A program made the translations under genes and the position numbers. The notes under the pieces are model-generated. The model saw nothing but the letters and a program-made list of their open reading frames with translations. It was not told where the DNA came from and did no database searches. From contig JBEKYR010000019.1 of the NCBI GenBank assembly GCA_049510745.1, positions 14,231 to 78,230 of the forward strand: 64,000 bases of DNA. Direction: 5' to 3'. Below are positions 8,314 through 31,571 of this stretch, in pieces; position 1 is the first letter of the stretch, and each line of letters begins with the position of its first letter. The stretch is from Verrucomicrobiota bacterium (lineage in GTDB: Bacteria > Verrucomicrobiota > Verrucomicrobiia > Limisphaerales > Palsa-1400).

Positions 8314-9723
8314 ATGCCGGATCAAAAACAGGAATTGCTGCGAGCGCTGCCAGCCATCACTGACTTGCTGAAAAGCGAAACCGCCGCCGGCTGGCTCCGG
8401 CAACATCCGCAGCCGCTTGTGACCGAATGTCTGCGCCGCGCGCTGGCCGGATGGCGGCGGCAAATCCTCGATGACGCCGCCAGCCCTGGCGGCACGGAGC
8501 ACCTCAGCGTTGAGACGGTGCTGGCACAGGCGGAAAAATTTCTCCAGGACGCCACCGAACCGCGCCTGCGCGAAGCCATCAACGCCACCGGCATCATCCT
8601 GCACACCGGCCTGGGCCGGGCGGTTCTGTCGGCGGGCGTGGTGGATTCGATGATGGACGAGTTGAAGGGTTATTGCACGCTGGCCGTGGACCGCGCCTCC
8701 GGCGAACGCGCCGGGCGCGATGAATTGGTGGAATACATCTTGACGGAACTGACCGGCGCCGAGGCGGCCACGGTCGTCAACAATAACGCCGCTGCCACCC
8801 TGCTGGCGCTGGCGGCGCTGGCGGCGCCCAAGGAAGTCATCGTGTCGCGCGGACAGCTCATTGAAATCGGCGGCTCCTTCCGCCTGCCGGAAGTGATGGC
8901 GCAAAGCGGCGCGCGGCTCGTCGAAGTGGGCGCGACCAACCGCACGCATCTCAAGGATTACCAAAGAGCCGTCACGGAAAATACGGCGGCAATCCTGCGG
9001 GCGCATCCCAGCAATTATCGCGTCGTCGGTTTCACCAGCGAAGTCGCGCTGCGCGATCTGGCCGAACTGGCCCACGGCCGCAATTTGATTCTGATGGATG
9101 ATCTCGGCGCGGGCGCGTTGGTGGATTTGAAACGCTTCGGCCTGCCCCACGAGCCGACCGCGCGCGAATCCATCGAAGCCGGCGCGGACGTGGTCCTGTT
9201 CAGCGGGGACAAACTCATCGGCGCCGGCCAGTGCGGCGTGATCGTGGGGCGAAAGGCGTTGATTGAAAGACTCCGCCAACATCCGCTCATGCGCGCCGTC
9301 CGCGTGGACAAAATCTGCCTGATGGTTCTGGAGCGGACGCTGCACCTGTTCCGCGACCCGGCGCGGCTGGCACGCGAGCATCCGATCTACCGCATGATCA
9401 GCACGCCGCCGGAAGAGTTGAAATCGCGCGCCCAGGAACTCGCGCGCCTGATTTCCGCCGAAGCTCCCAAGGCCGGAATTGAAATCGCCGAAAGCGAGGC
9501 CTTCCTCGGCAGCGGCTCGTTGCCGACGGAGGCGATTCCCAGTTTTGTCGTGACGGTTTCCCTGCCGGAAATGAGCGCCGCCGAACTGGCGCGGAGGCTG
9601 CGGTTGGATCGCGCCTGCGTTTTTGGACGCATCGAAAACGACCGGGTCTGCCTGGATGTGCGCACGTTGACCGGCGAACAAGTGCCGGCCGTCGCCGCGG
9701 CCTTTGGCCGTCTCGTCGCATGA
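8314..9723 (+). CDS. selA: L-seryl-tRNA(Sec) selenium transferase
   Basis: INATGIILHTGLGRA, VNNNAAA, SRGQLIEIGGSFRLP, EVGATNRTH, FSGDKLIG (PLP lysine). Confidence 0.97.
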   Translation: MPDQKQELLRALPAITDLLKSETAAGWLRQHPQPLVTECLRRALAGWRRQILDDAASPGGTEHLSVETVLAQAEKFLQDATEPRLREAINATGIILHTGLGRAVLSAGVVDSMMDELKGYCTLAVDRASGERAGRDELVEYILTELTGAEAATVVNNNAAATLLALAALAAPKEVIVSRGQLIEIGGSFRLPEVMAQSGARLVEVGATNRTHLKDYQRAVTENTAAILRAHPSNYRVVGFTSEVALRDLAELAHGRNLILMDDLGAGALVDLKRFGLPHEPTARESIEAGADVVLFSGDKLIGAGQCGVIVGRKALIERLRQHPLMRAVRVDKICLMVLERTLHLFRDPARLAREHPIYRMISTPPEELKSRAQELARLISAEAPKAGIEIAESEAFLGSGSLPTEAIPSFVVTVSLPEMSAAELARRLRLDRACVFGRIENDRVCLDVRTLTGEQVPAVAAAFGRLVA

Positions 9724-11669
9724 CCGCGCTGCGCCGCCACATCATGCTCGGCACCGCCGGGCACGTGGACCACGGCAAGAGCGCGCTGGTCAAGCTGCTC
9801 ACCGGCTGCGAAACCGACACGCTGGCGGAGGAAAAACAGCGCGGCCTCACGATTGACCTCGGCTTCGCGCCCTGCCAGCTCGCGGACAAACGGGTGGTCG
9901 GGGTGGTGGACGTTCCCGGCCACGTGGATTTCATCCGCAACATGGTCGCCGGCGCGCACGGCATCGACGTGGTCATCTTTGTCGTCGCGGCGGACGATGG
10001 CATCATGCCGCAAACGCACGAGCACCTGCACATTCTCACGCTGATGGGGTTGCGCCACGGGCTGGTGGCGCTGACGAAAATTGATCTCGTGGACGCCGCC
10101 CGGCGGGATTTTGTGATCCAGGATTTGCGGCGGCTGCTGGCGGAAACCTTTTTGGCCGGCGCGCCCATTTGTCCGGTCTCCAACGTCACCGGCGAAGGCC
10201 TCGACGATTTTTTTGACGCGTTGAACCGGACCGTGGACGCGTGCGGCGACCGGCCTTGCGCCGGGCCGTTCCGGCTGTGGGTCGAGGATGCGTTCAGCAT
10301 CCGCGGCACGGGCACAGTCGTCACCGGCATTCCCACCCATGGCCGGGTTCGCCCTGGCGACGAGCTTCATCTCTTGCCCGCCGGTCTGGCCGGGCACGTC
10401 CGCCGGATGCAGGTTTATGGCGAGGACGCCGCGGAAGGAAGCGCCGGGGAATGTGTCGCGCTGAACATACCGGAACTGGAGCACGAAGCCGTCCGGCGCG
10501 GCCTGGCTCTCTGCGCTTCAAATATGTTCGAGCCGAGCATGATGGCCGAGGCGGAATTGCAAATTTTGAAATCCATCCAAACCAACATCGAGGACTACCT
10601 CGAAGTGCAACTTCATGTTGGAACCGCCTCGGTCCCGGCGCGCCTGGCGATGCTGGAAAACACCGCCATGACCGGCGGTCAAAGACAATTCGTCCAGCTT
10701 CGCCTCGCCTCACCGCTGCCGCTCGTGCCCGGGGAGCGGTTTGTGGCGCGGGCCAATGTTGCCGGCGCGGGCCTCAGCGGGCTGACGACCATCGGCGGCG
10801 GACAAATTCTCGGCTTGAGCAACGCGCGGTTGCGCCGGAAAAAACCATGGACGCTCGACCTGCTCGCCACCCGGCGCGAAGCCGTCCAGCTTCCGCTGCG
10901 CTGGTGCGAACAGATGGTGCGCGAAAGCGAATCGCCCGCCACCGTGGCCAGCCTCCAAAAAAAATGCTGGAACCGCCCGGAGGAAATCGCCGAAGCGCTC
11001 GAACGGTTGCACGCCGAAAACCGGGTGGTTCAGGCGCCTGGCGGCGGATGGATTCATCGCGCCGCGATGCAAAAGATGGCGGAGAACATTCTCGCCGCCG
11101 TCCAGACTTTTCACGCGGCCAACCCGCAACGCGCCGGCATCAGCCGCGAAGAACTGCAGGCGGCGCTCAAAGCCGATCCCGTTTTTCTGGAGGCGGCGGC
11201 GGAATCGCTGCTGGACTCGAAGCAGATCGAACGCAACGGCGCGCTCTTGGCGCGGGCCGGTTGGAACGCGCGGATTCCAGAGCGCGACCAGCGCTTGTGC
11301 GACCAGATCGCCGCGAAATTGCAGCAAGGCGGCTGCTCCCCTCCGGGCTTGGCCGAACTGGCCGCGTCGGCCAACGAGCCGCTCCCGCGCGTCCTCGCGC
11401 TGGCGCAACTGCTGGCGGAACGCGGCGTGGTGGTGCGGTTGGACGACCAGATTTGGATGCACCGCGACGCCGTGGCGGCCGGCCGGGAAACGGCCCTAAG
11501 ACTTTTCACGCGCGCGCCGGCCTTTTCCACGATGGAATTCCGCGACGCCCTCGGCGTCAGCCGCAAATTCGCCGTGCCGCTGGCGGATTACCTGGACAAA
11601 ATCCGCTTCACCGTCCGCTCCGGCAACAATCGCACGCCGGGAGCGGAAGCCAGAAAACTCTTTCCATGA
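9720..11669 (+). CDS. selB: Selenocysteine-specific translation elongation factor
   Basis: GTAGHVDHGKS, RGLTIDLGF, DVPGH, TKID and the C-terminal winged-helix motif FRDALGVSRKFAVPL. Confidence 0.97.
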   Translation: MTALRRHIMLGTAGHVDHGKSALVKLLTGCETDTLAEEKQRGLTIDLGFAPCQLADKRVVGVVDVPGHVDFIRNMVAGAHGIDVVIFVVAADDGIMPQTHEHLHILTLMGLRHGLVALTKIDLVDAARRDFVIQDLRRLLAETFLAGAPICPVSNVTGEGLDDFFDALNRTVDACGDRPCAGPFRLWVEDAFSIRGTGTVVTGIPTHGRVRPGDELHLLPAGLAGHVRRMQVYGEDAAEGSAGECVALNIPELEHEAVRRGLALCASNMFEPSMMAEAELQILKSIQTNIEDYLEVQLHVGTASVPARLAMLENTAMTGGQRQFVQLRLASPLPLVPGERFVARANVAGAGLSGLTTIGGGQILGLSNARLRRKKPWTLDLLATRREAVQLPLRWCEQMVRESESPATVASLQKKCWNRPEEIAEALERLHAENRVVQAPGGGWIHRAAMQKMAENILAAVQTFHAANPQRAGISREELQAALKADPVFLEAAAESLLDSKQIERNGALLARAGWNARIPERDQRLCDQIAAKLQQGGCSPPGLAELAASANEPLPRVLALAQLLAERGVVVRLDDQIWMHRDAVAAGRETALRLFTRAPAFSTMEFRDALGVSRKFAVPLADYLDKIRFTVRSGNNRTPGAEARKLFP

Positions 11670-13288
11670 AAATTGATTTTGCCAAACGCCGCCGCGTGAT
11701 GGAGCGGTCGCAGCTTCTGGGGCATTGCATCTGCGACGTGCAACGGCCCTGTCCGTGCGATGTGCTTCGTGAACAGAATCTTTGTCCCTGCGCCGGAGAG
11801 CGGCCTGACACGGTTGACATTTCGCAGGTGAAATTGACGCAACTGGCGCGCAATGCCGGGTGCGCCTCCAAGCTCGCACCCGCCGATTTGGACGCGCTGC
11901 TGGGCCGGCTGCCGGCGGTGGAGGACCCGGCGGTGATTTCCGGCCTGGCCGCCGCCGATGACGCGGCGATTTACCGAATGGCGGAGAACCTTTGCCTGGT
12001 GCAGACGGTGGACGTGTTCACGCCTTGCGTGGACGACCCGCGGCTCTTCGGCAAAATCTGCGCGGCCAATTGTCTCTCGGACATCTACGCCATGGGCGGC
12101 GAACCGCGCACGGCTTTGAGCGTGCTGGCGTTTCCTTCCGAAAAACTGCCGGGCGAAATTATTTTTCAAATGCTCGACGGCGCAATGGAGGTTTTCAAGC
12201 AAGCCGGCGTCGCGCTCGTCGGCGGGCACAGCATCAAGGATGATGAAATCAAACTCGGCTTTGCCATCACGGGCCTGATCGATCCCGCCGTGGCCGCCGC
12301 CCTGGATAAGCCCAATGCCGGCGACGCGCTGGTCCTGACCAAACCGCTCGGCACGGGTGTGCTGGCGTTTTGCCGCCAAATCGGGCGCGAGCATCCGGCA
12401 GGCATCGCGGCGGCCGAACTTTCCATGTCCGCGCTGAACCAGGCGGCAGCGGAGGCGATGAAAGAAGCGGGCGCGTCGGCCTGCACGGACGTCACGGGCT
12501 TCGGCCTCTTCGCCCATCTGCTGCGGATGCTGCGGCCGGGCGGACTGGGCGCGGAAATTTTCGCGGAGACGCTGCCGGCCTTCGACGGCGCGATGGACGC
12601 CCTGCGGCAAGGCGTGATTCCGGGCGCGATTGAGCGCAACCGCGAGTATGCCGGCGACGCGCTTCACGTTGCGCCGGGCGTAAACGAGGCCGCGGTGAAC
12701 CTGGGATTCGACGCGCAGACTTCCGGCGGCTTGCTGATCGCCGTTCCGCCGGAGCGGCTGGAACGGTTGCGGCAATCTCTGGCCCGGCGCGGCGCCGGCC
12801 ATTTTGTCATCGGCAAAATCGTTGCTGAAGCCGGACAGATTTATCTTTCAGCGGCCGGCAACAACACGGCGGAAATTTCAAGATTGAATTCAACCCTTCA
12901 ACCGCGGAACATTGATTCCATGACAACACCAAAGAAAAATTCCCCGCCCCGCCACGGCGATTGCTGCGCGGGCGCGGGCGAAACCGCAGCCGGTTCCGCC
13001 GCCGAATCAGAAAAGGCCTTTGACGCGCTGATCCGGTCGGTGCGATCGGCGGGCGCGCTGGATGAAAAGACGAAGGAACTTATTCTGTTCAGCCTGGTCG
13101 TGGGCAGCCGTTGTCAACCATGTTTTGAGGCGCATCTGCGCAAGGCGCGCGAACTGGGCCTCTCGCAGGCGGAACTGGACGAGGCGGCGTGGTGCGCCAT
13201 CGCCCTGGGCGGCGCGCCGGTCATGATGTTTTATCAGGAATGCCTGGAGCGGATTCAATCGGGCAAGGCGGACCGGGCGCGACCTTGA
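11666..13288 (+). CDS. selD: Selenophosphate synthetase (Cys form) with a Cys-rich N-terminal extension and a C-terminal CMD/AhpD-like domain
   Basis: LTQL..AGCASK, DDAAIY, QTVDVFTP, SDIYAMGG, GGHS, LTKPLGTG, TDVTGFGL, DAQTSGGLL. Start set at ATG 11666, overlapping the selB stop. Confidence 0.93.
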   Translation: MKIDFAKRRRVMERSQLLGHCICDVQRPCPCDVLREQNLCPCAGERPDTVDISQVKLTQLARNAGCASKLAPADLDALLGRLPAVEDPAVISGLAAADDAAIYRMAENLCLVQTVDVFTPCVDDPRLFGKICAANCLSDIYAMGGEPRTALSVLAFPSEKLPGEIIFQMLDGAMEVFKQAGVALVGGHSIKDDEIKLGFAITGLIDPAVAAALDKPNAGDALVLTKPLGTGVLAFCRQIGREHPAGIAAAELSMSALNQAAAEAMKEAGASACTDVTGFGLFAHLLRMLRPGGLGAEIFAETLPAFDGAMDALRQGVIPGAIERNREYAGDALHVAPGVNEAAVNLGFDAQTSGGLLIAVPPERLERLRQSLARRGAGHFVIGKIVAEAGQIYLSAAGNNTAEISRLNSTLQPRNIDSMTTPKKNSPPRHGDCCAGAGETAAGSAAESEKAFDALIRSVRSAGALDEKTKELILFSLVVGSRCQPCFEAHLRKARELGLSQAELDEAAWCAIALGGAPVMMFYQECLERIQSGKADRARP

Positions 13289-14121: not shown

Positions 14122-16416
14122 ATGGCATACGAAGAACTGGTCATTGATCTACTGAAGGCGGAGCGTGAGGAAGACGTTACTGCCGCGCTCACAGTCTATG
14201 GCTTGGAGAAATTCACTGATTCGAATTGGATTCCATATGGGGGAACGCTTTTTGAAAATAATTACGGATTGATAGGGACGCAACAGGCTGATTCGCTTGG
14301 CGCTCTAGTCGAAAAGGTCGTGAATTCGATTGATGCAGTTCTGATGCGGGAATGTCTAGCGAGAAACCTCGATCCCAGAAGTAATCTTGTGCCGCGAACG
14401 ATGAACGAAGCGGCTGAACAGTTCTTGAACATTCCAGAAGGCAATTTAGCCAAGCTGTCTCCAACACAACGGACAGAACTGGCCGAAAAGAATATCAGCA
14501 TCATCGTGACAGGGCAGAAGCCTGACGAAGGCAACCCATGCATCATAGTTGCTGACACCGGAGAGGGACAGAGGCCCGAAGACTTCAAAGACACCCTTGT
14601 TTCATTGCTTCGCAGCAACAAATGTTCTGTCCCGTTTGTTCAGGGCAAATTCAACATGGGCAGTACTGGCAGCCTAGTGTTTTGTAGCCCGAACAAGAAT
14701 TACCAGTTGATCATTTCACGACGTAACGCGGCAATTCCTACAGCCCGAAATTCAAAATGGGGATTCACTTTAATCAGGAAGCGTCCTCCAATGAAGAATG
14801 AGAAGAATGAGCGTTATGAATATCTCGCGCCGAAAGGGAAGATCTGTGAACTCGATCTTGATGAAATCCCAATTTTTCCAGACGCCGAAAATGTGCCCTA
14901 CAAACGCCCAATCAAATGCGGGACGATCGTAAAGCTTTACGAGTATGACCTTCCGAGAAGTATAAAGACGATGGCGACCGCAGATTTCTACCGGGCTTTA
15001 TCAACCAAGCTCTGGACGGTGGTCGTTCCGATGCGAATTTATGAGGCGCGGGGTTACAAAGGTCACACTCTTGAGAGCACGTTTTCTGGGATGAACATCC
15101 GGCTTGAAGATGACAAAGGTGACGTCCTGGAGGAAGGGTTTCCATGCAATTTTACTCTTAATATTCCGAAGGTCGGAATGGTTGATGGGCGCATTTGCCT
15201 ATTCAAAAAGGACGCCGAAATCTCACGTTGGGTAAGTTCACGAGAGGCGATCATTTACACTATTAACGGCCAGTCTCACGGCGCGCTGCCGAATGATTTT
15301 TTCCGACGCCAGTCAGTCAATCTCCCGTGGATACAGAAACAACTCTTGATCAACATTGATTGTTCGCGCCTCGACCAGCAATTGATCAACAGAATGTTTA
15401 TGACCAGTCGCGACAGGCAGCGCGATGTTCAGGAAAAAGACTTCCTAGAGTCTGCCCTGGCCGAATTTGTTCGCAAGCATCCGGGGCTTCGGGAGTGGAA
15501 CGAGCGACGCCACAGAGAAACGGTCGAGGAACAGTTCGTGGAGGAATCAGAAACGATCGAACTATTTGAAAAATTAGTAGCGCAGAATCCAGCACTCGCT
15601 GAGATTCTCGGTGTTGGTCTCAAAATCAAAGTCCCAAAGCCCGGCGAACAGCCGACTTCAAAGTTCGAAGGCCAAAGATTCCCAACGTTTTTGAAACTCG
15701 AAGACGCCCATAACAACGACGATTTCGTCAAAAAGTGTCCCCAGAATTCCTATTGTCGCGTTACTTTATTAACCGATGCGGAAAACGATTATTTGGTCCG
15801 AGCGATTGAGCCGGGGAAACTTATCATCAGACCGGAAGCATTGGTCAAGAGTACTAGCCTCTACAATGGCCGGTTGGAACTGCAACTAGCCCCGGAAAAA
15901 ATGTACGATGTTGGTCACCGTATTGAAGTAAAGGTAATGTTAACCAGCCCGAACTCGACCGAGGGCTACTTTTCAGTTCGGTTTTGGCTGGAGATCGATT
16001 CGCCAGTGCAGCCAAAGAAGAGTCCTCCCAGCCCGCCCAAGCCGCCAAAAGTAACGACCGTGGCCCTGCCTGAAATCAAAGAAATCAAAAAGGATCAATG
16101 GGCCGAGGCTATCGAAATTACTTCCGACGATGATGTCGTGAAGATAATGAAGGACAACCAAGGGACGACTTCTCTCGTGAACATGGATAATCGCCACTAC
16201 CGCCGCTATGTTTACGCCAACCCCAAGCGAGAGCAGGAGATTAGAAACCTCTACAAGATCTCATCAACAATCATGGGGCTTTGGCTGCTCGAACAGGTTG
16301 ATAAAGGTGGTCTCCAGGAGGAAAACCGAAGATCGGTGAGTAACTCACTTGGCCGGCTTCTGCTTCCTTTGGTTGATTCACTAGGGAGCAAGTTGGCTGA
16401 ATTAGAGCAAGGGTAG
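14122..16416 (+). CDS. GHKL (Hsp90/MutL/MORC-like) ATPase-domain protein of unknown function
   Basis: N-box EKVVNSIDA, G1 DTGEG, G2 GKFNMG; visibly lower GC than the flanks. Confidence 0.7.
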   Translation: MAYEELVIDLLKAEREEDVTAALTVYGLEKFTDSNWIPYGGTLFENNYGLIGTQQADSLGALVEKVVNSIDAVLMRECLARNLDPRSNLVPRTMNEAAEQFLNIPEGNLAKLSPTQRTELAEKNISIIVTGQKPDEGNPCIIVADTGEGQRPEDFKDTLVSLLRSNKCSVPFVQGKFNMGSTGSLVFCSPNKNYQLIISRRNAAIPTARNSKWGFTLIRKRPPMKNEKNERYEYLAPKGKICELDLDEIPIFPDAENVPYKRPIKCGTIVKLYEYDLPRSIKTMATADFYRALSTKLWTVVVPMRIYEARGYKGHTLESTFSGMNIRLEDDKGDVLEEGFPCNFTLNIPKVGMVDGRICLFKKDAEISRWVSSREAIIYTINGQSHGALPNDFFRRQSVNLPWIQKQLLINIDCSRLDQQLINRMFMTSRDRQRDVQEKDFLESALAEFVRKHPGLREWNERRHRETVEEQFVEESETIELFEKLVAQNPALAEILGVGLKIKVPKPGEQPTSKFEGQRFPTFLKLEDAHNNDDFVKKCPQNSYCRVTLLTDAENDYLVRAIEPGKLIIRPEALVKSTSLYNGRLELQLAPEKMYDVGHRIEVKVMLTSPNSTEGYFSVRFWLEIDSPVQPKKSPPSPPKPPKVTTVALPEIKEIKKDQWAEAIEITSDDDVVKIMKDNQGTTSLVNMDNRHYRRYVYANPKREQEIRNLYKISSTIMGLWLLEQVDKGGLQEENRRSVSNSLGRLLLPLVDSLGSKLAELEQG

Positions 16417-16592: not shown

Positions 16593-17477
16593 TCACTTTT
16601 GACACTCCTCATTAGACGTGGTTTGCGGCAGGGCAAAGCACGGTTCAATGGCGCCGCAGGTGGCGCATTCCAGGCAGCGGATGCAGCCGGAAACGTTGAC
16701 GGCCTGATCCACTTTCACACCCATCGGGCAGCGGCTGCGGCAGAGGTTGCATTCGACGCATTGCTGCGGATTGAACCGGAGATGAAACAGGCTCAACCGG
16801 TTGAAGAGCGCGAGCAACCCGCCGAGCGGACAAAACACGCGGCACCACGGCCGGTGAATGAAAAGCGCGGCCGCAAGAAAGGAGAGCAAAATGCCGCTCT
16901 TCAACCCGCTCATCAGCCAACCGTTGCCGGCAAGCAGGCTTTGCACGGAGTAAGGCACGCCGGCTTCCAGCGCGCCGGCCGGACAAAGCCGGCAAATGGA
17001 AATGACCTGCCTTTCAAATGGAATGCCGTTGAAACCCAGAATCAGCGGCAGAAGAATCACCAATCCTACCAGAACGAAGTAACGGCCGTAACCGGTCCAG
17101 GACGGCAGGATGATTTTCCGGGTGGTGATTTTGCCGAGCAAGTCCTGGAGAAAACCGAACGGACAAGCCCAGCCGCAAACGATGGAACCGCCGGCCGCGC
17201 CGACGAGCACGAGCACGCCGATCAATAAATACGGCACTTCCCCCGCCACTGGCAGCAGCGCCGCGTAGTTGGCCATCACACCCACCGGGCAGGCGAAGGC
17301 CGAGAGCGGGCACGAGTAACAGTGGAACACGCAGCCGGGAATGCCGTGCAGCCACCGGCCCAGCGGCGCGAGCCACAGGCCGAGAAAACCGGTTTGCACC
17401 CAGGGACGCCAGCGCGAGAGTTTTCGTCCGAGCGCCGCCGGCTTCCATTCAGGGCAATTGGGAACGGGACATTCCAT
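16593..17477 (-). CDS. Membrane-bound polyferredoxin, 4Fe-4S binding protein (NapH/YccM-like)
   Basis: HCYSCP, CPVG, CGWACPFG, CRLCPAG, WCRVFCPLG, CVECNLCRSRCP, CIRCLECATC, with TM segments. Confidence 0.88.
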   Translation of the reverse strand: MECPVPNCPEWKPAALGRKLSRWRPWVQTGFLGLWLAPLGRWLHGIPGCVFHCYSCPLSAFACPVGVMANYAALLPVAGEVPYLLIGVLVLVGAAGGSIVCGWACPFGFLQDLLGKITTRKIILPSWTGYGRYFVLVGLVILLPLILGFNGIPFERQVISICRLCPAGALEAGVPYSVQSLLAGNGWLMSGLKSGILLSFLAAALFIHRPWCRVFCPLGGLLALFNRLSLFHLRFNPQQCVECNLCRSRCPMGVKVDQAVNVSGCIRCLECATCGAIEPCFALPQTTSNEECQK

Positions 17478-17903: not shown

Positions 17904-18000
17904 TGGCGGAGGTGGATGGGAATCGAACCCACCTGGGACTTTGTTGAGTCCCACGCTGGTTTTGAAGACCAGGAGCGCCACCAGGTCGCCCCACACCTCC
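17904..18000 (-). tRNA. selC: tRNA-Sec (UCA)
   Basis: 97 nt, GGAGGTG...CACCTCC-GCCA. Anticodon arm CTGGT-CTTCAAA-ACCAG, long variable arm TGGGACT/AGTCCCA, TTCGATT T-loop. Confidence 0.97.
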
Positions 18001-22376: not shown

Positions 22377-24476
22377 ATGGCAAAGCAAAAGACTGGTGGC
22401 TTATCATGGCGCTGGCTGGGAACCGCCGGGGTGGCTTGCTGGACGTGTGCGCTGTTGGTTGTGCTTTGCTCGGAAAACAGGCTTCGCGCGGCTGATTCTC
22501 TTCTTTCCGGTTCTCCGTCCTCAAACGCCGTCATGGCTGCGCTGGAGTATCAGGAAACAGACTCTGGCGTCATCAACTGGGGCGTTTCCCTGACGCCGCG
22601 GACCAGTCCTTTCAAAAAAGAGCCGGCGGCGGCTTCGGGCAAAATCATTCGCGGCGTTTTGAATTTCGGCGCCGATTCCAGCAACTCCATTCCCTTTCTC
22701 TGGCAGTGCCAGGCGGGAAAACTTTACCTCGACCTCAATCGCAACCAGGATTTGACCGACGATCCCTCCGGCCTGTTCTTGGCGCGCGCCGCGAAGCCGG
22801 ATAATTACCAGACCTTTGCGAACGTCCACCTGCTTTTCAACACCGCTTCCGGCAGGTGCCGGGTGCTGGCGGACCTCTCCTTCTGGGACTACAGTGCGCC
22901 GCCAATTTGCAGCTTCGCGGTGCGCTCGTTCTGGCAAGGCAAACTGAGGTTGCAAGGGCGGGATTGGCAGGTGGGCATCGTCCCGAATATCCTGGACCGA
23001 TCGGGCTTGTTCGAGAACAGCCGGTTGCTGCTGCGTCCCTGGGATAAACGAAGCCAGCCGTTCAACGCGGATGATGGGTTGCTCGCCACTGTTCCCTTCT
23101 CGCGGAAACTTTTTGTGGATGGCCACGCCTATCAACTGGAGTGCGTCGCCCGTTCGCAAGACGGCGAAGCCAGGCCCGCGCTCCAATTCACGGAACAATC
23201 CGTCGCGCTGGGCGAAGTGAAAATCACCGGCCAATTCATCCGCCGCCTTGTTCTGCAGGGCGAGGCGTTCCTGGTGGTGCTCGATCAGCCGGCAGGCGTC
23301 GTGAAAATCCCGGCCGGCAGCTATCACCAGCCCGAGATCCTGCTCGAACAAGACGGCGTCGCGGCCTTCTCCCGCAATTCCGGCCAGTGGCAAATTGGCC
23401 GGCAGATTTCCGTGCGCGACAAGGCACAGGTGGCATTGAACGCGGGCGGGCCGTTGACCAATTCCGTCGCCACCGGCCGCCACGGTCAGGATTTGCGTCT
23501 GGATTATTGCCTGCTCGGCGTGGGCGGCGAAACTTACCAACTGGCCAGGCAAGATCGCTCCAAGCCGCCGGAGTTCGCGGTTTACAAGGGCGGAAAAAAA
23601 ATCGCGTCCGGCAGATTTGAGTTTGGCTGAGGCAACACCTGCTCGCACTCATGGCGAGTGCCTCTCACCGCCGGCGGCAAACTGTCCCTTGTGGCTTCGT
23701 CCGACCTCGGAGCGCTCGGTGCGAAGGAAGGTCCGGCGGTCATCTACGACTGGGTGTTGCCCAGCCTGGCGCCGCTGTTGCTGCCGTGGCTGGTCATTCT
23801 GGGATTGCTCACCTTGAAACGGAATCGTTGCGCGGCCGCGTGGTGGATTTGGCTGCCGCTCGGATATGTGATCGCGTTTACGTTGGCGCCGCTGGACATC
23901 ATGCCCGCGGGAACAGATTTTTTCCTGGATGTCATCGCGGCGCTGGCGGCGGGGCTGGGCGCGGTCTGGCTCCTGACAGATTATCTCCGGCGGCCACATC
24001 GGTTCGTTACGTTTCTGTGCCTCCTGCTCGCCTTGGCCGGTTTCAGCGCGCTGGCCTTTGTGTCCGCACAAAGCTGGAGTTTCACGTCGGAAACATTTGT
24101 GGCCGGCATCGTTCTGGCCGTGGGCGTGGTGGTCAGTGCGGTGGCGTTGAGTCTGGCCGGGCTGATCTGCCGCGGCCGTTATCGTCGCGTCGGCCTTTAT
24201 GGGTGGCTGCTCCTCTTGCTGGCCGTCATCTGGCTGGTGATCACCGGGCCTTTCTTTTTGTTCGCGCTCATCGCTTCAGGCGGAAGAGTGTCTTGGGGCG
24301 GATTCTTTGTTCCCGTTTTTGCGTTGGTGACGCTCCATTTCGCCACCCTGCTGCCGTTCCTGATCCTGTCCTCGGCCAGCCCGTTTTACCGCCAACGGCT
24401 CAAGGCCCTGCTGCACGTCACACCGGAAGCGCCGCCCGTGCTGGCGCCTTTGCCGGATGCCGGTTTAAAAACTTGA
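22377..24476 (+). CDS. Putative exported, membrane-anchored selenoprotein (FEFG-U-GNTC; Sec at UGA 23628-23630) joining track ORFs 22359-23630 and 23658-24476
   Basis: The two ORFs share a frame and are separated by a single UGA with no other stop. The read-through motif matches the paralog at 24508, and a hairpin follows. Architecture is an N-terminal hydrophobic segment, a soluble domain and a multi-TM C-terminus. Confidence 0.8.
23645..23661 (+). promoter_or_regulatory. Candidate SECIS hairpin
   Basis: GCACTC-ATGGC-GAGTGC; loop starts 21 nt after the UGA. Confidence 0.75.
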
Positions 24477-24507
24477 ACTCGATGAACACCAAGCCAACCA
24501 TGATGTT

Positions 24508-25779
24508 ATGAAACTTTCCAAACAACTGTTCCTGGCCGGAATGGTTCTCGCCGGCGCCGCCTTCGCGCAATCCGAGCAATGGCTGGAATACCACACCGGC
24601 GCCGAGGGCCGCGCCTACCAGCAGGTGGAACTGACCACCAATCCGCCCCCCGGCGTCGCTCTGCCGAAGTTCAATGCGCCGCCCTATTTCGCCCGCTGGC
24701 TCACGCCGATGGACCCCGCCGGCGGGCGCTGGCTCTGCCTGGACCGCACGCGCAAGTCCGGACCCTATGACCGGCTGTTCTTTGACAACAACGGCAATGG
24801 CCGGCTGGACGACAAATCGCCCCTCCCGGCGCGGCTGGATTCCTCCTTCGCCTATTTTCCGCCAGCCCGCGTTGTGTTCAAGGGCGAGGACGGGCCGATC
24901 ACCTATCATCTTGTCTTCCGCTTCTATCAATACGAAAAGAATCCCCCGCAATTGCTGGCCTCCTCCGCCGGCTGGTATGAAGGTCTGGTCAATTTCGACG
25001 GCGCGAAAAAGCGCATTCAACTCATCGACGGCAACGTCAACGGCACGTTCAACGACGTCGCCCCGGACCCGTATGACTGCGACCGCGTCCAAGTCGAGGG
25101 CGACAAGACCAGCGAACGGTTTTTGGGCCGGATGCTGGAAGTGGACGGGAAGTTTTACCGGATCGAAGCCGCCCGCGACGGCGCGTTCGTCAAAGTGCAG
25201 AAGGCGGAGAACGTCACCCTCGGCCAGGTGCGTGTGCCGGAAAACATTTCCGAATTCGCCGCCTTCGGCCCGAACGGCCATTTCGTGCGCACACCGGCGG
25301 ACGGCCAATTCACCTTGCCGGCGGGCCATTACCGGATTTTCCACTGGACGATCAGCCGCAAGGATGAAAAGGGCGCGCCGTGGACGCTCTCAGGCTATAA
25401 TTTTCCCAAAACCGCCACCTTCGAGGTCGCCGCCGATAAGACCGCCTTGGTGCAAATCGGTGAGCCGGTGCAAGCCGTGCTCAAGGCGGCGGAGGGCGCC
25501 AAGCGTCAAGTCGATTTCAGCCTCAGCTTCGTGGGCCGGCAAAAGGAATCCATCGAGATGCTGTGCGACGGCCAGCGCCCGCGCGGGCCGAAATTGACGT
25601 TGGCCAACAGCGACGGGACGCTGTGTTATACGAACACTTTCGAGTTTGGATGAGGCGGCGTTTGCTCGCTCTCATGGCGGGAGCCTAAAAATGTGCGGCG
25701 TCCGTTGGTTGGCGGCGTCAAAATTTTCAGCCCGTTCCAGGTGCTGACGAGTCCGTTGACGCTCGCGCCAAAAAAATAA
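24508..25779 (+). CDS. Putative secreted selenoprotein (FEFG-U-GGVC; Sec at UGA 25651-25653)
   Basis: Signal peptide ending AFA. Read-through adds GGVCSLSWREP...APKK and ends at TAA 25779, 12 nt before the next ATG. Has a DNNGNGRLDD loop resembling the paralog's DLNRNQDLTDD. Confidence 0.8.
25668..25684 (+). promoter_or_regulatory. Candidate SECIS hairpin
   Basis: GCTCTC-ATGGC-GGGAGC; loop starts 21 nt after the UGA; compensatory changes relative to 23645-23661. Confidence 0.75.
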
Positions 25780-25791
25780 ACTGATCATCGC

Positions 25792-28700
25792 ATGAAAACG
25801 ACACGGCAATTCCTTCTGGTCTCTGCCGCTTGGGCGCTCCTGGGCGTCAGCACGCACGCCCAGACGCTGGAGCGGGTGGGGGTTCAAAAAGTGGCGGACA
25901 CAGCCACGAACGCTGGCGCGCAAAAACTTACCGGAACGGTCACCGACGCCGCCGGCCATCCCCTGGCCGGCGCGACGGTGGAGTATTGGCGTTACGAGGG
26001 AAATCGGCTCCTGGCGAGTCCCTTGGAATTGATCGGGCAAATCACTACGGAAACGAACGGCGCTTTTGAATTCCAACTCTCGCGGGCGGCCGGATTCCTC
26101 CTGGCACGAAAGCCGGGCCTGGCCCCGGCCTGGATACAATTGGGCCAGCCGTATCCTTCCGTCGGTGACAGGGGAGAGAATTTGATGCTGACTCCGCCCG
26201 CGGCGCTGGCGGGCGTGGTGGTGGACGAAGCGGACAAACCTGTTCCAAACGCCCGGGTTTCCGTGGCCATTGCCATCTCCGAAATGTCGCAGGAGGAGGG
26301 AGCGCGAAGTCTTAATTATTTCACTGGCAAACCCGCGCGCGATTGTTTTGCCGCCCGCACGGATGCCGCCGGCCGTTTCCGCATCGAGAATTTTCCGACC
26401 AATGGCACGGCCGCCCTGACCGTTCAGGCGCCGGGAAAAGCTCTGCGCCAATCACCGCAGGAAGCCGGCGGCATGGACTCGCTGCCTTGGCGCGCGGGCC
26501 AGCAAGACATCAAATTGGTCGTGGAACCGGCCGGCAGCGTCGAAGGAAGGATTATCGTCGAGGGCAGCAATCAACCGCCGCCCGTCGCGCGGCTGACGTT
26601 GCAGCCCGATGGGCCGGGCTTTGCCGCGCTTGACGAGCGCGAGCCGGCGCCATCCGGCGCGGACGGCGCGTTCCAACTCAGCGACGTGCCCGCCGGTTCT
26701 TATCACATTCATGCCGTCTTTGGAACCAATGCCGTTCCGGAATGGGTCGCAGACATGGTTCCAGTTTCGGTTGAGTCCGGCCAACCCACGCGCGGCGTGC
26801 AGGTGACTGCGGTGCGCGGCGGCGTGCTGGAAGTGGCCGTGCTGGGTCAAAATGATCGCAAACCACTGGCGCAAATTATGGTCAATGCCGTCAAGGAGAA
26901 TTTTCAATCCGCCGCCAGTTCGGACAGCAACGGCATCGCTCTCCTGCGGCTGCCGCCTGGAGATTATCAGGTGGCGGCGTTTCGTGAATCCATGCCCGCG
27001 AGCCAGACTCCCGCCAGCGTGGAAGCCGGCAAAACCAACCGCGTGGAGATTGAAATCGCCCCGCCGAGAAAAATCACCGGCATCGTCCGCCAACCGGACG
27101 GCCAGCTGGCGGCGGGGTTGCGGGTGAGATTGGTGGGTGGGTTTGGCCCCGGGGCGGGCGAAGTCAAGACCGATCCCGGCGGCCAGTTTAGTTTGGAATG
27201 GAATCAGCGCCGATTCGGACAGAACGACACGACTGCCTGCGTTCTCGTGCGGGACGCGGAACACAATCTGGCCGTGGCGCAGGACATTGACGAAGACACC
27301 GGCCCGCTCGACCTGAAACTCGCGCCGGGGCTGACGCTGGCGGGCCGGGCGGAATCCGACGGCAAACCCCTCACGAACGCGGCCGCCGCGCTGATTTTCT
27401 TTACCGGCAGAAGGGGCATGCACCTCGCCGGATTGAGCCGCGAAACCAACACGCCGGGCCGGTTTGAAATTCCCGCCATTCCGCCCGGACGAAAATACGG
27501 CGTCCTGGTCTCCGCTCCGGGTTACGGACAGAAGGCGAATTACGATGTGAATGCCGCCGCCGAAGGTGGCCGCATGGAACTGGATCCCTTTGAGCTTAAA
27601 CCTGCCAACCTCAAACTCGCCGGCCAGTTGCTCGACGCGGACGACAAGCCGGTCGCAGGCGCCTATGTGAATCTTTACGGAGAGGGCCAGCCCAGTGCAA
27701 ACGCGCGCACGGACCGCGAGGGTCGCTTCCGCTTCGAGCATGTCTGCGAAGGCCCGGCTCGAATCTCGGCCAACAAGCAGAATTCATTCGGCAATATGTC
27801 GGCGGAAGGCGGCGACACCAACGTCGTTCTGCGGCTCGGTCAAACCCTCAACAACTCCCCGGGTTCCACCGCCCATAAACTCAAAGGCACTGTGACCGAC
27901 CCCGACGGCAAACCCGCCGCCGGCGCGCAGTTGGCGGTGTTTCCGTCCTTTGATGTGAGTTGGACAAAGACCGCGACCAACGGCGCCTTCAGCCTCACTT
28001 GGTCGCTCCAGCCCTGGCAAATGCAGCAGTCAGGCGGCGCCGCGCTGCTGGTGGCCCGCGACCCGGCCCGCAATCTGGCCGCCACCGAAGAGTTGCCGGA
28101 GGAAACCACCAACCTCGACGTGAAATTGAAACCGGCCCTGACCGTCACCGGACTGGTTGAAAAAGATGACGACTCTCCACTCGCGGGCGCGCAGGTCGGT
28201 GTCTGGCTCAAGGCGGGCAACATGTACGACCAGTTGAACCAACAAATGGCTGGGACCGACGCCCAAGGCCGCTACGAAATCAAGTGCCTGCCGCCGGATG
28301 CGTCATACATTGTTTTCGCCACCGCCAGCGGCCACGGTCGAAGCCAGCAGCAAGTTCAGAACGATTCCGAAACAAACCGCGTGGAACTATCGCCCTTCGT
28401 CCTCAAGCTGGCCGACCGTTTTTTGGCCGGCCAGGTGCTCAACGAAAATGACAAGCCCGTTTCCGGCGCGAACGTGTCGTTGAATGGCGAAGACCAGCCC
28501 CAAGCCAGCATGACCACCGACAGCAAGGGCCGCTTTCACTTCCAGGTTTGCGAAGGGCAGGTCCGCCTCTTCGCCAATTCCCCCCAAGGCGGTGAATTCG
28601 CGCAAGCCACCGCCGAAGCGGGCGACACCAACGTCGTGATGACTTTGAGTTCCCAGGCGGGGAATATCCGCGAGACACCGCACCGCGCCTCGCTCAAAGG

Positions 28701-29097
28701 CAGTCCGCTGCCGGACTTGGCGGCCGTCAATCTCGCCGGCGACGCCGCCCCCGCCGGCCAGCCGGTGTTGTTATGCCTGTTCGACGCGGGCCAGCGTTCG
28801 TCGCGACACGTCGTCCACCAGTTGGATGGACAGGCCCCCGCGCTGCGGCAGCAAGGCGTCACGGTGCTGGGCGTTCAAGCCGCGGTCACCAGCGATGACA
28901 TACTCAACGAATGGAAAAGCGCCAGTCCGGTTTCATTCCCGCTCGGACGCGTGGCGGAGAAATCCGAAAAATCAAAATGGGCCTTGGCCGTTCCGGCCTT
29001 GCCGTGGCTGATCCTGGCCGACGCCCATCATCGCATCATCGCCGAAGGCTTCCCGCTCGACGACCTGGACGCGCAGATCAAAACCCTGGCCAAGTGA
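25792..29097 (+). CDS. Secreted protein with repeated carboxypeptidase-regulatory-like beta-sandwich domains and a C-terminal thioredoxin-like fold lacking CxxC
   Basis: Many G-x-V-x-D-x-x-G-x-P-x-x-G-A and TDxxGRF repeats. C-terminal GQPVLLCLFDAGQRSSR...LPWLILAD resembles TlpA/redoxin. Confidence 0.75.
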   Translation: MKTTRQFLLVSAAWALLGVSTHAQTLERVGVQKVADTATNAGAQKLTGTVTDAAGHPLAGATVEYWRYEGNRLLASPLELIGQITTETNGAFEFQLSRAAGFLLARKPGLAPAWIQLGQPYPSVGDRGENLMLTPPAALAGVVVDEADKPVPNARVSVAIAISEMSQEEGARSLNYFTGKPARDCFAARTDAAGRFRIENFPTNGTAALTVQAPGKALRQSPQEAGGMDSLPWRAGQQDIKLVVEPAGSVEGRIIVEGSNQPPPVARLTLQPDGPGFAALDEREPAPSGADGAFQLSDVPAGSYHIHAVFGTNAVPEWVADMVPVSVESGQPTRGVQVTAVRGGVLEVAVLGQNDRKPLAQIMVNAVKENFQSAASSDSNGIALLRLPPGDYQVAAFRESMPASQTPASVEAGKTNRVEIEIAPPRKITGIVRQPDGQLAAGLRVRLVGGFGPGAGEVKTDPGGQFSLEWNQRRFGQNDTTACVLVRDAEHNLAVAQDIDEDTGPLDLKLAPGLTLAGRAESDGKPLTNAAAALIFFTGRRGMHLAGLSRETNTPGRFEIPAIPPGRKYGVLVSAPGYGQKANYDVNAAAEGGRMELDPFELKPANLKLAGQLLDADDKPVAGAYVNLYGEGQPSANARTDREGRFRFEHVCEGPARISANKQNSFGNMSAEGGDTNVVLRLGQTLNNSPGSTAHKLKGTVTDPDGKPAAGAQLAVFPSFDVSWTKTATNGAFSLTWSLQPWQMQQSGGAALLVARDPARNLAATEELPEETTNLDVKLKPALTVTGLVEKDDDSPLAGAQVGVWLKAGNMYDQLNQQMAGTDAQGRYEIKCLPPDASYIVFATASGHGRSQQQVQNDSETNRVELSPFVLKLADRFLAGQVLNENDKPVSGANVSLNGEDQPQASMTTDSKGRFHFQVCEGQVRLFANSPQGGEFAQATAEAGDTNVVMTLSSQAGNIRETPHRASLKGSPLPDLAAVNLAGDAAPAGQPVLLCLFDAGQRSSRHVVHQLDGQAPALRQQGVTVLGVQAAVTSDDILNEWKSASPVSFPLGRVAEKSEKSKWALAVPALPWLILADAHHRIIAEGFPLDDLDAQIKTLAK

Positions 29098-29732: not shown

Positions 29733-31571
29733 ATGAAAACGTCTATGAAAACAACAAAAGCATTATTTGGAATTTTCGCCATTATGGCGGCTCTCGCGAT
29801 TCAGACCCAGGCCCAAACTTTTCTCACCAACGGTCTGGTGGCGTATTACCCTTTCAACGGGAATGCGAATGATGCGAGCGGCAATGGCAATAACCTTGCC
29901 AACCATGGCGCAACGCTATGCGCGGACCGATTCGGCAACCCAAATCAAGCATACAGTTTCAATGGGAGCAGTTATCTTGGGTCTTCAACTGTGCCGTTAA
30001 GCCAAATTGACAACTGGACTGTGGTTGCATGGATAAATCTGGCATCGCTCAATCAAGTGGAAGCGTATGTTGTCTGTATGGGTTATGATGATGGCGGTAG
30101 TGGCAATGGATATGCTTTGGGTGTCGCGGGAGGAAACCAGTTGGGCGCGTTTTTTGGCGGCGTAGGCGGTTTTCCCGGCGGATATGTGTTTCCCTCCACC
30201 AACCAATGGTATCAGGTTGTGATGTTGCGAAGTTCTGGATCAACAATGTTCTATGTAAATGGAGTTTTGACAACAAACGGCATTCTAAATACGCCGGGAA
30301 CGCCAACTTCCTTTGAAATCGGTTCAGCCACTGGCATTCGGTTTTTTAACGGAGCAATTGACGACGTTCGCATTTACAACCGTGCCCTCTCGGCTTCAGA
30401 AGTTCAGGAACTTTACCAATACGAGTCGGTGCTCAAATCTTATCAGGCCACTGCCACCGCAGAGGTAATCAACGGGTTTGTGACGGGTGTAACCATTACC
30501 TATCCCGGTTATGGCTACACGAACACGCCGACCGTGACAATCACCGGTGGTGGCGGCAGTGGGGCGCAGGCCGTGGCCGTGGTCAGCAACGGGTTCGTCG
30601 TGGCCATCGACGTTTTGGATGCGGGCGCCGGCTACACCAACACGCCACTAATCGTCATCGACCCGCCTTTGTATCCTTATCCAGCCACAGCCGCCGCCAA
30701 CGTTGTCAACGGGTTTGTGGTCGGCGCCACCATTCTCTATGGCGGTTCTCGCTACACGAACACGCCCACCGTGAAAATCATCGGTGGCGGCGGCAGTGGG
30801 GCGCAGGGCGTGGCCGTGGTCAGCAATGGGTGCGTCGTGGCCATCGACGTTTTGGATGCGGGTTCCGACTACACCAACACACCACTGGTCGTCATCGACC
30901 CGCCTTTTATTCCCAATCCAGTTTTGGGCGTCGTTGAACGCATGTCGTCCCTTGCGTTTTCCAACCTGACCCTTGGAGGTGTTTATCAATTGCAGCAGTT
31001 CGCCGGGGGGTATTATTGGACAAACCAGCCGGTCAACTTCACGGCTACAAACTCTGTCTATACGCAAGTGGTTTCTGGCACGATGGACAGCGGAGAATAC
31101 CGCCTGGTGCTCAGTCCAGTTCCGGCCCAGGCATTCGCTGTGCCGGAGGTGGTCAATGGCTTTGTCGTCGGCGCAACCGTGACGAGCGGCGGCTCCGGCT
31201 ATGTCACCAACCCGACGGTCAGCTTTGTTGGTGGCGGGGGCATCAATGCCGGGGCGGTTTCCCAAATCTCCGGTGGCGTGGTGACGAGCATCACCATCAC
31301 CAACGCAGGCATCGGTTACACCAACACGCCGATAGTTGAAATCGACCCGCCGCCCGCCATCGTCGTGTCACCCACCATCCAAATGGTGATGCGGATGGAT
31401 TCCGCCGATCTGGCTCCGTATGACAATTATCAGATTCAATTCACACCTGCCCTCGGCGGAGCTTGGCGGAATTGGGATGGCGGATTATTCAGCCCGACGG
31501 ACGTGACGAATTCACAATACCTTTTAGTCACGAATACGACAGCGTTTTTCCGCCTGCAATATGTGCCGTGA
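29733..31571 (+). CDS. Secreted LamG/concanavalin-A-like domain protein with G-x-G-Y-T-N-T-P repeats
   Basis: GLVAYYPFNGNANDASGNG, FNGAIDDVRIYNRALSASEV, repeated modules and a C-terminal AFFRL. Confidence 0.85.
   Translation: MKTSMKTTKALFGIFAIMAALAIQTQAQTFLTNGLVAYYPFNGNANDASGNGNNLANHGATLCADRFGNPNQAYSFNGSSYLGSSTVPLSQIDNWTVVAWINLASLNQVEAYVVCMGYDDGGSGNGYALGVAGGNQLGAFFGGVGGFPGGYVFPSTNQWYQVVMLRSSGSTMFYVNGVLTTNGILNTPGTPTSFEIGSATGIRFFNGAIDDVRIYNRALSASEVQELYQYESVLKSYQATATAEVINGFVTGVTITYPGYGYTNTPTVTITGGGGSGAQAVAVVSNGFVVAIDVLDAGAGYTNTPLIVIDPPLYPYPATAAANVVNGFVVGATILYGGSRYTNTPTVKIIGGGGSGAQGVAVVSNGCVVAIDVLDAGSDYTNTPLVVIDPPFIPNPVLGVVERMSSLAFSNLTLGGVYQLQQFAGGYYWTNQPVNFTATNSVYTQVVSGTMDSGEYRLVLSPVPAQAFAVPEVVNGFVVGATVTSGGSGYVTNPTVSFVGGGGINAGAVSQISGGVVTSITITNAGIGYTNTPIVEIDPPPAIVVSPTIQMVMRMDSADLAPYDNYQIQFTPALGGAWRNWDGGLFSPTDVTNSQYLLVTNTTAFFRLQYVP
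30440..30910 (+). repeat. Intragenic tandem duplication (~237-bp period) in the LamG gene
   Basis: Near-identical ggcggcagtggggcgcagg...gtggccatcgacgttttggatgcggg blocks at ~30552 and ~30789; boundaries approximate. Confidence 0.8.

Follow-up and report, generated by a model that had tools for sequence, protein, structure and literature searches.

Tandem exported proteins with a U-x-x-x-C motif in a Verrucomicrobiota bacterium, probable members of a large uncatalogued selenoprotein family

Two tandem genes of a Verrucomicrobiota bacterium (contig JBEKYR010000019.1 of assembly GCA_049510745.1) very probably encode exported proteins in which an in-frame UGA is read as selenocysteine (Sec) under the direction of a selenocysteine insertion sequence (SECIS), and which likely use Sec together with the cysteine four residues further on (Cys+4) as a redox pair. 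The genes lie in a stretch of 64,000 nucleotides (nt), positions 14,231 to 78,230 of the contig, which is called the window below and in whose numbering all positions are given. Comparative sequence analysis places both in a large family that is most likely a genuine new selenoprotein family, absent from current catalogues. It would extend the ~119 known prokaryotic selenoprotein families and subfamilies by one that is widespread, spans several phyla and occurs in many paralogous copies, with the unusual traits of predicted export, lack of a recognisable thioredoxin fold and a SECIS merged with the presumed active-site motif.

Two reading frames that continue past UGA

Both open reading frames (ORFs) stop at FEFG-TGA and stay open beyond it, as a preliminary description of the window had stated (Table 1). 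Gene 1, which starts at ATG 22377 (with TTG 22359 as an alternative), continues past its codon as GNTCSHSWRVP and ends at a TGA at 24474-24476; read-through joins two same-frame ORFs, and the expected protein of about 699 residues with a C-terminus of multiple transmembrane (TM) segments turns out to have exactly 699 residues and seven such segments. Gene 2 (ATG 24508) continues as GGVCSLSWREP and runs for 41 residues to a TAA at 25777-25779. Here read-through narrows the gap to the next gene, gene 3 (ATG 25792), from 138 to 12 nt, again as described. The read-through proteins of genes 1 and 2 align across the TGA as paralogs, with 24% identity over 327 residues (E 2e-8), in agreement with the earlier claim that their similarity runs past the stop.

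The probability that the two TGAs are sequencing or assembly errors is negligible. Contigs of independent public peat-metagenome runs bridge the first codon (runs X2, X5 and X6) and the second (X2 and X6) with 0 differences, which confirms both, and no variant at either codon appears among the sequence variants listed. Moreover, more than 150 loci, drawn from different assemblies, have kept the TGA codon.

Conservation of the codon was examined in several ways. A six-frame search of 41 related genomes gave 25 matches, of which 23 have a single in-frame TGA and reach residues 395-423 of 423, the remaining two spanning N-terminal parts only; since every match that covers the site has one in-frame TGA, a chance origin of the codon is excluded. 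A profile of the family gave matches with exactly one in-frame TGA in 14 of 14 cases in an even sample of 301 Verrucomicrobiota genomes and in 60 of 69 cases in 301 Planctomycetota genomes. Finally, the pattern E-[FY]-G-(TGA/TGC/TGT)-G-x-x-C-x-x-[ST]-W-[RS]-x-P, scanned at the DNA level with one genome per species, gave at least 138 matches in at least 120 loci. The codon is TGA in all 138 pattern matches listed, with TGC and TGT allowed, but this count is biased and has to be held against the proposal to that extent, because the pattern included the SECIS-encoded S-W-R-x-P, which is dispensable in forms with Cys at the site. Homologs that end at E-[FY]-G-TGA and have conserved sequence downstream, the support that the preliminary description had named, were thus found both among the relatives and by the pattern scan. 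Within the Planctomycetota, titled pattern records come from Phycisphaerae, Sedimentisphaerales, Pirellulales, Planctomycetaceae, Brocadiaceae and Thermoguttaceae; elsewhere they come from Verrucomicrobiota, Kiritimatiellia, Hydrogenedentota, Omnitrophota, Sumerlaeota, Riflebacteria and one metagenome-assembled genome (MAG) each of Spirochaetia and Acidobacteriota. A third pattern match in the genome that holds the window (C22:45461) was rejected as a chance match; it lies antisense to an ABC-ATPase gene and has no hairpin.

The part downstream of the TGA varies as a protein-coding sequence does. Among ten orthologs of gene 2, variation at the three codon positions is 0.251/0.197/0.370 downstream of the codon and 0.242/0.161/0.359 upstream, and this match indicates that the post-TGA stretch is coding. 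The extension measures exactly 41 residues in 42 of 153 distinct read-through ORFs, and in ORFs of the gene 1 type (type b) it comprises ~270-325 residues of TM domain, which is held by 33 of the 120 pattern loci listed. In three members of the gene 2 type (L091, L105 and L060), the frame beyond the TGA encodes recognised extracellular domains, namely F5_F8_type_C and Laminin_G_3, the latter at E 1.2e-30. It is accordingly very improbable that the UGA is a true stop, with proteins that end at FEFG and downstream conservation that stems from a separate ORF or a regulatory RNA hairpin. The public gene calls do end at the TGA for all 120 homologs listed for gene 2 (the best 120 of 598, covering at most 90% of the read-through protein) and for all 120 listed for gene 1 (the best 120 of 392, covering at most 59%), and downstream of gene 1 there is a callable ORF that begins with GTG at 23658. 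Yet the sequence beyond the codon never leaves the frame of the gene, often has no start of its own, and can be aligned across the site with homologs that lack the stop. Neither TGA is followed by a terminator-like site, and only genomes with Sec machinery contain the TGA forms (see below). The gene calls rather bear out the earlier expectation that standard annotation would cut these proteins at FEFG; the named public homologs are called only "hypothetical protein".

The sequences also support the extracytoplasmic location that had been proposed, through their signal and anchor segments and a positive-inside topology. In gene 1, a K/R-rich start is followed by an anchor (residues 14-32), the 427-residue loop 33-459 with the Sec site lies outside, and the seven TM segments (460-666) have their K/R-rich loops (479-490, 534-543 and 594-610) and tail on the inside. 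Conserved features of this 7-TM domain are an N-R motif after the first TM segment, C-R-x-x-Y in a cytoplasmic loop and S-P-F-Y-R-x-R in the tail. Gene 2 has a classical signal peptide (A-F-A/Q), and a hydrophobic N-terminal segment was found in 105 of 123 complete N-termini of the family.

Table 1. Positions of the two genes, their recoding elements and associated features in the window
Feature	Position	Strand	Remarks
Gene 1 (type b)	22377..24476	+	Predicted 699-aa selenoprotein plus stop codon; N-terminal signal/anchor, periplasmic beta-rich region with Sec418, 7-TM C-terminal domain
Conserved Sec-loop domain segment, gene 1	23493..23753	+	-45 to +41 around Sec; used in the family profile
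Sec codon (UGA), gene 1	23628..23630	+	Motif FEFG-U-GNTC
SECIS hairpin, gene 1	23645..23661	+	Stem GCACUC/GAGUGC (6 bp), loop AUGGC; stem begins 14 nt after UGA
7-TM domain, gene 1	23754..24374	+	Residues 460-666
Gene 2 (type a)	24508..25779	+	Predicted 423-aa soluble exported selenoprotein plus stop codon; signal peptide MKLSKQLFLAGMVLAGAAFA/Q; Sec382
Sec codon (UGA), gene 2	25651..25653	+	Motif FEFG-U-GGVC
SECIS hairpin, gene 2	25668..25684	+	Stem GCUCUC/GGGAGC (6 bp, one G-U pair), loop AUGGC
Gene 3	25792..29097	+	1101 aa, CarboxypepD_reg repeats; C-terminal thioredoxin-like domain with F-D-A-G-Q-R-S-S-R replacing CxxC
selA	8314..9723	+	Profile match, 538.6 bits
selB	9720..11669	+	Profile match, 321.3 bits
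selD	11831..12754 (matched part)	+	323.8 bits; no in-frame stop
tRNA-Sec (selC)	17904..18000	-	ARAGORN; Rfam 70.7 bits

A compact SECIS hairpin within the coding sequence

Each UGA is followed by a short hairpin that is conserved throughout the family. Counted from the U of UGA (position 0), positions 17-22 pair with 28-33 around the 5-nt loop R-U-G-G-C, and each of the six pairs is formed in 149-152 of 152 distinct sequences. Both sides of the stem change together in four of the six pairs. Pair 18-32 occurs as U-A (76), C-G (60) and U-G (14), 19-31 as A-U (101), U-A (38), G-U (5) and G-C (4), and 21-29 as U-A (128), U-G (16) and A-U (7). These counts come from sequences in which the search pattern had fixed positions 12-14, 21-22, 24-28 and 33-34 of the hairpin region and left the covarying positions 15-20, 23 and 29-32 free. 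In a 150-row alignment, 99.1% of the cells pair, compared with 87.1% in shuffles, none of 500 of which attains the observed value; when the partner strand is slid, 23-68% of the cells pair. RNAalifold recovers the inner five pairs.

The hairpin also leaves its mark on the protein. Synonymous sites are frozen, with codon 15-17 being NNG in 149 and codon 18-20 being NNC in 150 of the 152 sequences, so that, given the pairing, the apparent covariation of the protein between Y/H...V and L...E and between S...R and T...S is base pairing. Much of the "hidden motif" S-x-S-W-R-x-P after Sec is shaped by the SECIS hairpin, besides protein function. Among 30 homologs with Cys in place of Sec (see below), W+8 is kept in 28 and P+11 in 27, but S+7 in only nine and R+9 in only 11, which fits a SECIS that imposes S+7 and R+9 in the Sec forms. 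The invariant columns of the family are E, G, U, G, C, W and P only.

In bacteria, the distance from the UGA to the loop of the SECIS is usually ~16-37 nt, and the hairpin described here falls within that range. It resembles the canonical bacterial SECIS of the Escherichia coli fdhF type, as portrayed in the accessible parts of PMC13188914 and PMC12013277, in that a stem-loop whose apical loop contains G residues lies within the ORF, a short way behind the UGA. It differs in its very compact core (6 bp and the 5-nt R-U-G-G-C), which is almost invariant across phyla, and in its overlap with conserved protein residues, through which covariation of base pairs appears as covariation of amino acids. 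The case thus illustrates how a SECIS can constrain protein sequence.

Sec machinery, Sec-free homologs and the chemistry of the site

The genes selA, selB, selD and selC all lie in the window, as profile matches, ARAGORN and Rfam confirm for this part of the preliminary description. The same machinery accompanies the family elsewhere. Among the 301 Verrucomicrobiota genomes, which were scanned with the family profile and for selB above a cut-off, nine hold the family and 17 have selB; all nine holders are among the latter, so that more than half of the sampled selB-positive genomes have the family, and the profile scan found it in none of the 284 selB-negative genomes. The Planctomycetota sample has 214 selB-positive genomes and 26 holders of the family, the highest copy number, eight, being that of G520 and G567. 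Of the 23 Planctomycetota genomes with TGA forms, 22 are selB-positive, and in the 23rd (G475, 2.1 Mb) selA is present and a tRNA-Sec (G475:C85:2591-2686) lies at a distance of 1.2 kb from the family gene. TGA forms are hence limited to genomes with Sec machinery in both samples (9/9 Verrucomicrobiota and 23/23 Planctomycetota), as the preliminary description had anticipated. Three Planctomycetota genomes have stop-free forms only: G570 and G417 have Cys forms (FEYS-C-GGVC; L141 and L142) and neither selA, selB over the cut-off nor a convincing tRNA-Sec, and G454 has a Glu form and a tRNA-Sec. Within 8 kb of the 120 pattern loci listed, selB is found in 15 cases, selA in 14 and selD in 10.

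For the genome in hand (G000), five common families were checked for other uses of Sec. No Sec form was found there of FdhA (best match 102 bits, no stop) or of SelD (no stop), TGA occurs in 0 of 14 AhpC-TSA (AhpC/Prx) matches and in 0 of 14 thioredoxin matches, and Rdx/SelW has no match in this genome. Because no Sec form of these five families was found in G000, the two genes may be the main reason why its Sec machinery is kept.

Forms without a stop were sought by comparing a profile of the segment from -45 to +41 around the Sec site with 1.84 billion representative proteins, which gave 223 matches at E <= 1e-3. Among the best 150, 36 end at E-[FY]-G and 94 span the site, where they have C (30), G (13), R (10), S (9), L (6), P (4), W (3) or other residues (19). 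Cys-for-Sec homologs, which had been suggested as a further check, therefore exist both here and as L141 and L142, and Cys+4 is also kept in 24 of the 30 Cys forms. In 71 of the 94 stop-free homologs, a single base change of TGA would give the residue present (C, G, R, S, L or W); this comparison, made at the protein level, hints at repeated loss of Sec. A FastTree phylogeny of 240 domain segments (73 columns) serves as a hint only, with nine changes between Sec and Cys and 49 three-state changes against a shuffled mean of 83.5, the alignment being short and the direction and number of changes not fixed. The G form P0123 corresponds to a record named in NCBI nr (from a Tepidisphaeraceae MAG) and the R form P0125 has 14 cluster members, which indicates that at least some non-Cys forms are real. 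A contig of another genome (L144, G537:C442) carries several paralogs of the domain in a row that have neither a stop nor Cys at the site, in a genome with three TGA forms.

The occurrence of W, G, R, S or L at the site in database homologs could be taken to mean that the UGA is read as a standard amino acid (Trp, Gly, Cys or Arg) through near-cognate suppression or a reassigned code, and a reassignment of UGA to Trp is reported for some Verrucomicrobiota (PMC13462651, in its accessible part). Such a decoding is nevertheless highly unlikely here. TGA is an ordinary stop in these genomes, where it ends gene 1 and many other ORFs of the family, a dedicated covarying hairpin follows the codon, and all holders have selB, selA or tRNA-Sec. 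The G of P0123, moreover, is a true sense codon if that protein was called under table 11, the usual choice for such records and the one assumed here.

The Cys forms offer a clue to function. An AhpC-TSA/Redoxin domain lies directly behind the loop domain in five of five Cys forms tested, and a local model detects this fusion, with the motif FFCxCxxC, in 11 of the 30 Cys forms and in 0 of the 64 forms with other residues. The nearest solved relatives of the fused redoxin are deposited as "thioredoxin family protein", and its NCBIfam match is ResA. No relatives of the Cys-plus-redoxin form P0140 were found in the metagenome contigs searched.

On these grounds, we propose that the in-frame UGA is decoded as Sec by SelB and the tRNA-Sec, encoded 4-14 kb upstream, and that the compact hairpin inside the coding sequence directs this decoding. 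Sec would then lie within E-[FY]-G-U-G-x-x-C, with W-x-x-P behind it, towards the end of an extracytoplasmic and probably beta-rich C-terminal domain, which in gene 1 would be tethered to the 7-TM domain and in gene 2 would terminate a soluble periplasmic protein. The most likely chemistry is that of a redox-active selenol/thiol pair, in which Sec and Cys+4 would form a selenylsulfide and exchange electrons with thioredoxin-fold partners. We take the sequence comparisons to show recoding, membership in the family, the structure of the SECIS, the topology and the restriction to Sec-competent genomes, and infer from them the selenylsulfide, the redox role and the partners. The Sec-bearing domain may be immunoglobulin-like (Ig-like), as hinted at by weak matches of the family profile to Y-S-W-x-V-P segments of giant repeat proteins with Kre9_KNH and Big_7 domains; Pfam gives no direct Big_7- or Kre9_KNH-like match in the window proteins, and a PDB search with the family profile returned only a collagen adhesin (E 0.51).

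The main rival to this redox pair is that the proteins are genuine selenoproteins whose U-x-x-x-C loop binds or chaperones a metal or metalloid, such as Cu, Hg, As or Se species, with no redox relay, which we regard as unlikely though by no means far-fetched. Sco proteins bind Cu through a CxxxC motif and are maintained in the reduced state by TlpA-type redoxins, and a fused redoxin would suit the role of a metal site equally well. Metal-handling selenoproteins, too, can have a Sec/Cys pair in an exposed loop (PMC13188914, Table 1, as far as available), and recurrent neighbours among the 120 pattern loci include ArsM-like/DVU_1556-like methyltransferases (9), double-cubane reductases (13) and NapH-type polyferredoxins (16). 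Against a metal site speak the lack of a conserved His or Met beside the Sec/Cys pair and, in the same loci, of a consistently adjacent metal-transport gene. The preliminary description had proposed a redox or metal site; the redoxin fusions in Cys forms strengthen the redox side, which we infer here, without separating the two uses.

Several observations weigh against the proposal as a whole. The hairpin is short, with a consensus folding energy of only -5.6 kcal/mol; single-sequence folds of the two 63-nt stretches of the window are no better than shuffles (z -1.1 and -0.7), their minimum free energy structures differ from the stem supported by covariation, and no Rfam SECIS family was found at either site at the gathering threshold or at E <= 10. 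Two close relatives with TGA forms gave no full selB match: G014 has a split or frameshifted selA, a selB fragment and a tRNA-Sec (G014:C17:179946-180038) ~0.3 kb from a family gene; G019, with a completeness of 78%, has a tRNA-Sec as well. More generally, selB was not found in G014, G019, G475 and G341, each of which has selA and/or tRNA-Sec. At the site, as many as 64 of the 94 spanning homologs bear a residue other than Sec or Cys, which means that this chemistry is not indispensable to the domain. The redoxin fusions are seen in Cys forms only, and a canonical redoxin lies within 8 kb of Sec forms in just two of 140 loci. The thioredoxin-like domain of gene 3 (hidden Markov model (HMM) match with E 0.018, below the cut-off) has no CxxC; used as a single query, it was found in G000 only (two copies), in none of the eight other Verrucomicrobiota holders and in none of 292 non-holders, and this query therefore gives no support from co-occurrence. 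Finally, no RNA run is among the sequencing runs listed as holding this stretch.

Relation to known selenoproteins and genomic setting

The family matches no established model. The read-through proteins have no relevant match in Pfam or NCBIfam, selenoprotein models included, even at E <= 1, and the same databases have nothing for the TM domain or for the Cys homologs outside their redoxin part. This bears out the statement that the proteins match no recognised family, as far as Pfam and NCBIfam are concerned; catalogue families that have only cd or PTHR identifiers lie outside the scan. In its accessible portions, a 2026 catalogue of 119 prokaryotic selenoprotein families and subfamilies (PMC13188914) lists no U-x-x-x-C or comparable exported family and does not mention Planctomycetes or Verrucomicrobia; nearly all of its families have NCBIfam or Pfam models, none of which matches here. 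BSepDB (PMC13326102), judging from its available text, compiles known families only. A search of the literature on the motif and topic found no description of the family, with the supplementary S9 Table of PMC4807772 (Planctomycetes candidates) and Table S2 of BSepDB, which might list a member, outside its scope. The Atlas matches of the truncated gene 2 are all unnamed "(Fragment)" clusters of Planctomycetota and Verrucomicrobiota.

With known selenoproteins that have Sec beside Cys in a presumed redox motif, the family shares an observed or predicted extracytoplasmic location, a SECIS within the ORF and the existence of Cys homologs. It differs from those with UxxC, CxxU or UGC motifs in its U-x-x-x-C, in matching no thioredoxin-fold model and in the position of Sec in a beta-rich C-terminal domain without a Pfam model, a redoxin being present only as fusion partner of Cys forms; for genes 1 and 2 themselves, no HMM match to a thioredoxin-fold redoxin (AhpC-TSA, Redoxin or TlpA-ResA) was found. 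DUF1573 domains are beta-sandwiches and are common in Planctomycetes. Like the DUF1573 selenoprotein with its UGC motif (PF07610; PMC13188914, Table 1, in the part available), the present proteins would form an uncharacterised selenoprotein family. Membership in DUF1573 was rejected, there being no PF07610 match even at E <= 1 and both the motif and its position in the protein being different. In the N-terminal Ig-like domain of DsbD and in the TlpA-ScoI pair, a periplasmic beta-sandwich or CxxxC site is kept reduced by a thioredoxin-like domain. The likeness to these systems suggests a possible mode of action by analogy, gene 1, like DsbD, combining a domain of this kind with one in the membrane. 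A TM electron conduit of the DsbD/CcdA type was rejected, because there is no HMM match and the 7-TM domain has a single conserved cytoplasmic Cys and no intramembrane Cys pair; a CuA-like site was rejected for want of His or Met.

Screens that need abundant Cys homologs or canonical SECIS models can miss families such as this one, a limitation that is acknowledged in the accessible text of the deep-Sep study (PMC12013277), according to which such screens filter out candidates without Cys homologs. Selenoproteome papers, in the parts available, leave the lineages that hold the family undiscussed, and hundreds of public entries are cut short as "hypothetical protein", with proteins of the gene 1 type split into two gene calls. 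Models of the family and its SECIS would mend the annotation in Verrucomicrobiota, Planctomycetota, Kiritimatiellia, Hydrogenedentota and others, the family being found in many soil and water bacteria.

Gene 3 adjoins members of the gene 2 type in 24 loci, Planctomycetota included. Its thioredoxin-like domain has a conserved [FW]-D-x-x-Q-R-[PS]-S-R across Verrucomicrobiota and Planctomycetota loci, where an L-P-W loop is kept as well, and a second domain of this type with 52% identity is encoded at G000:C75:3120-3548. A broader picture, which we offer tentatively and with more doubt than confidence, is that the family could be the main Sec client in many bacteria of the Planctomycetes-Verrucomicrobia-Chlamydiae (PVC) group. 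The 7-TM member, the soluble member and the CxxC-less thioredoxin-like scaffold might act together as a dedicated periplasmic selenol system, the SECIS would have merged with the active-site loop so closely that residues of the protein are set by RNA pairing, and Sec might be ancestral and have been lost repeatedly through single-base changes of TGA. The family would offer a concrete reason for PVC bacteria of peat and sediment to retain the costly Sec machinery.

The Sec genes of the window are part of a recurrent "selenium island". Directly upstream of selA-selB-selD lie an HGD-D/double-cubane-like gene (5939-7453) and a BcrAD/BadFG-type activase (7450-8241), and a NapH/MauN-type polyferredoxin (16593-17477, minus strand) adjoins the tRNA-Sec. 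NapH-like proteins, double-cubane reductases and DVU_1556/ArsM-like methyltransferases recur with the frequencies given above in loci such as L047, L135 and L111, with the reductases matching NF040772 (428 bits in L135). A link between double-cubane proteins and SelD is drawn in the accessible part of Haft and Gwadz (bioRxiv 10.1101/2022.07.06.499078). The 764-residue ORF between selD and the NapH-like gene (14122-16416) has no Pfam or NCBIfam match. In Planctomycetota, SelD proteins encoded near family genes (L096 and nine other loci) have a Cys-rich N-terminal extension with ...GHCICDPKRPCPCD...GICPCAG.... The window also encodes, two genes downstream, a separate Laminin_G_3 (concanavalin A-like lectin) protein (29733-31571), which, together with the F5/8 type C and Laminin_G_3 domains after Sec in some members, suggests a link to the binding of surface glycans.

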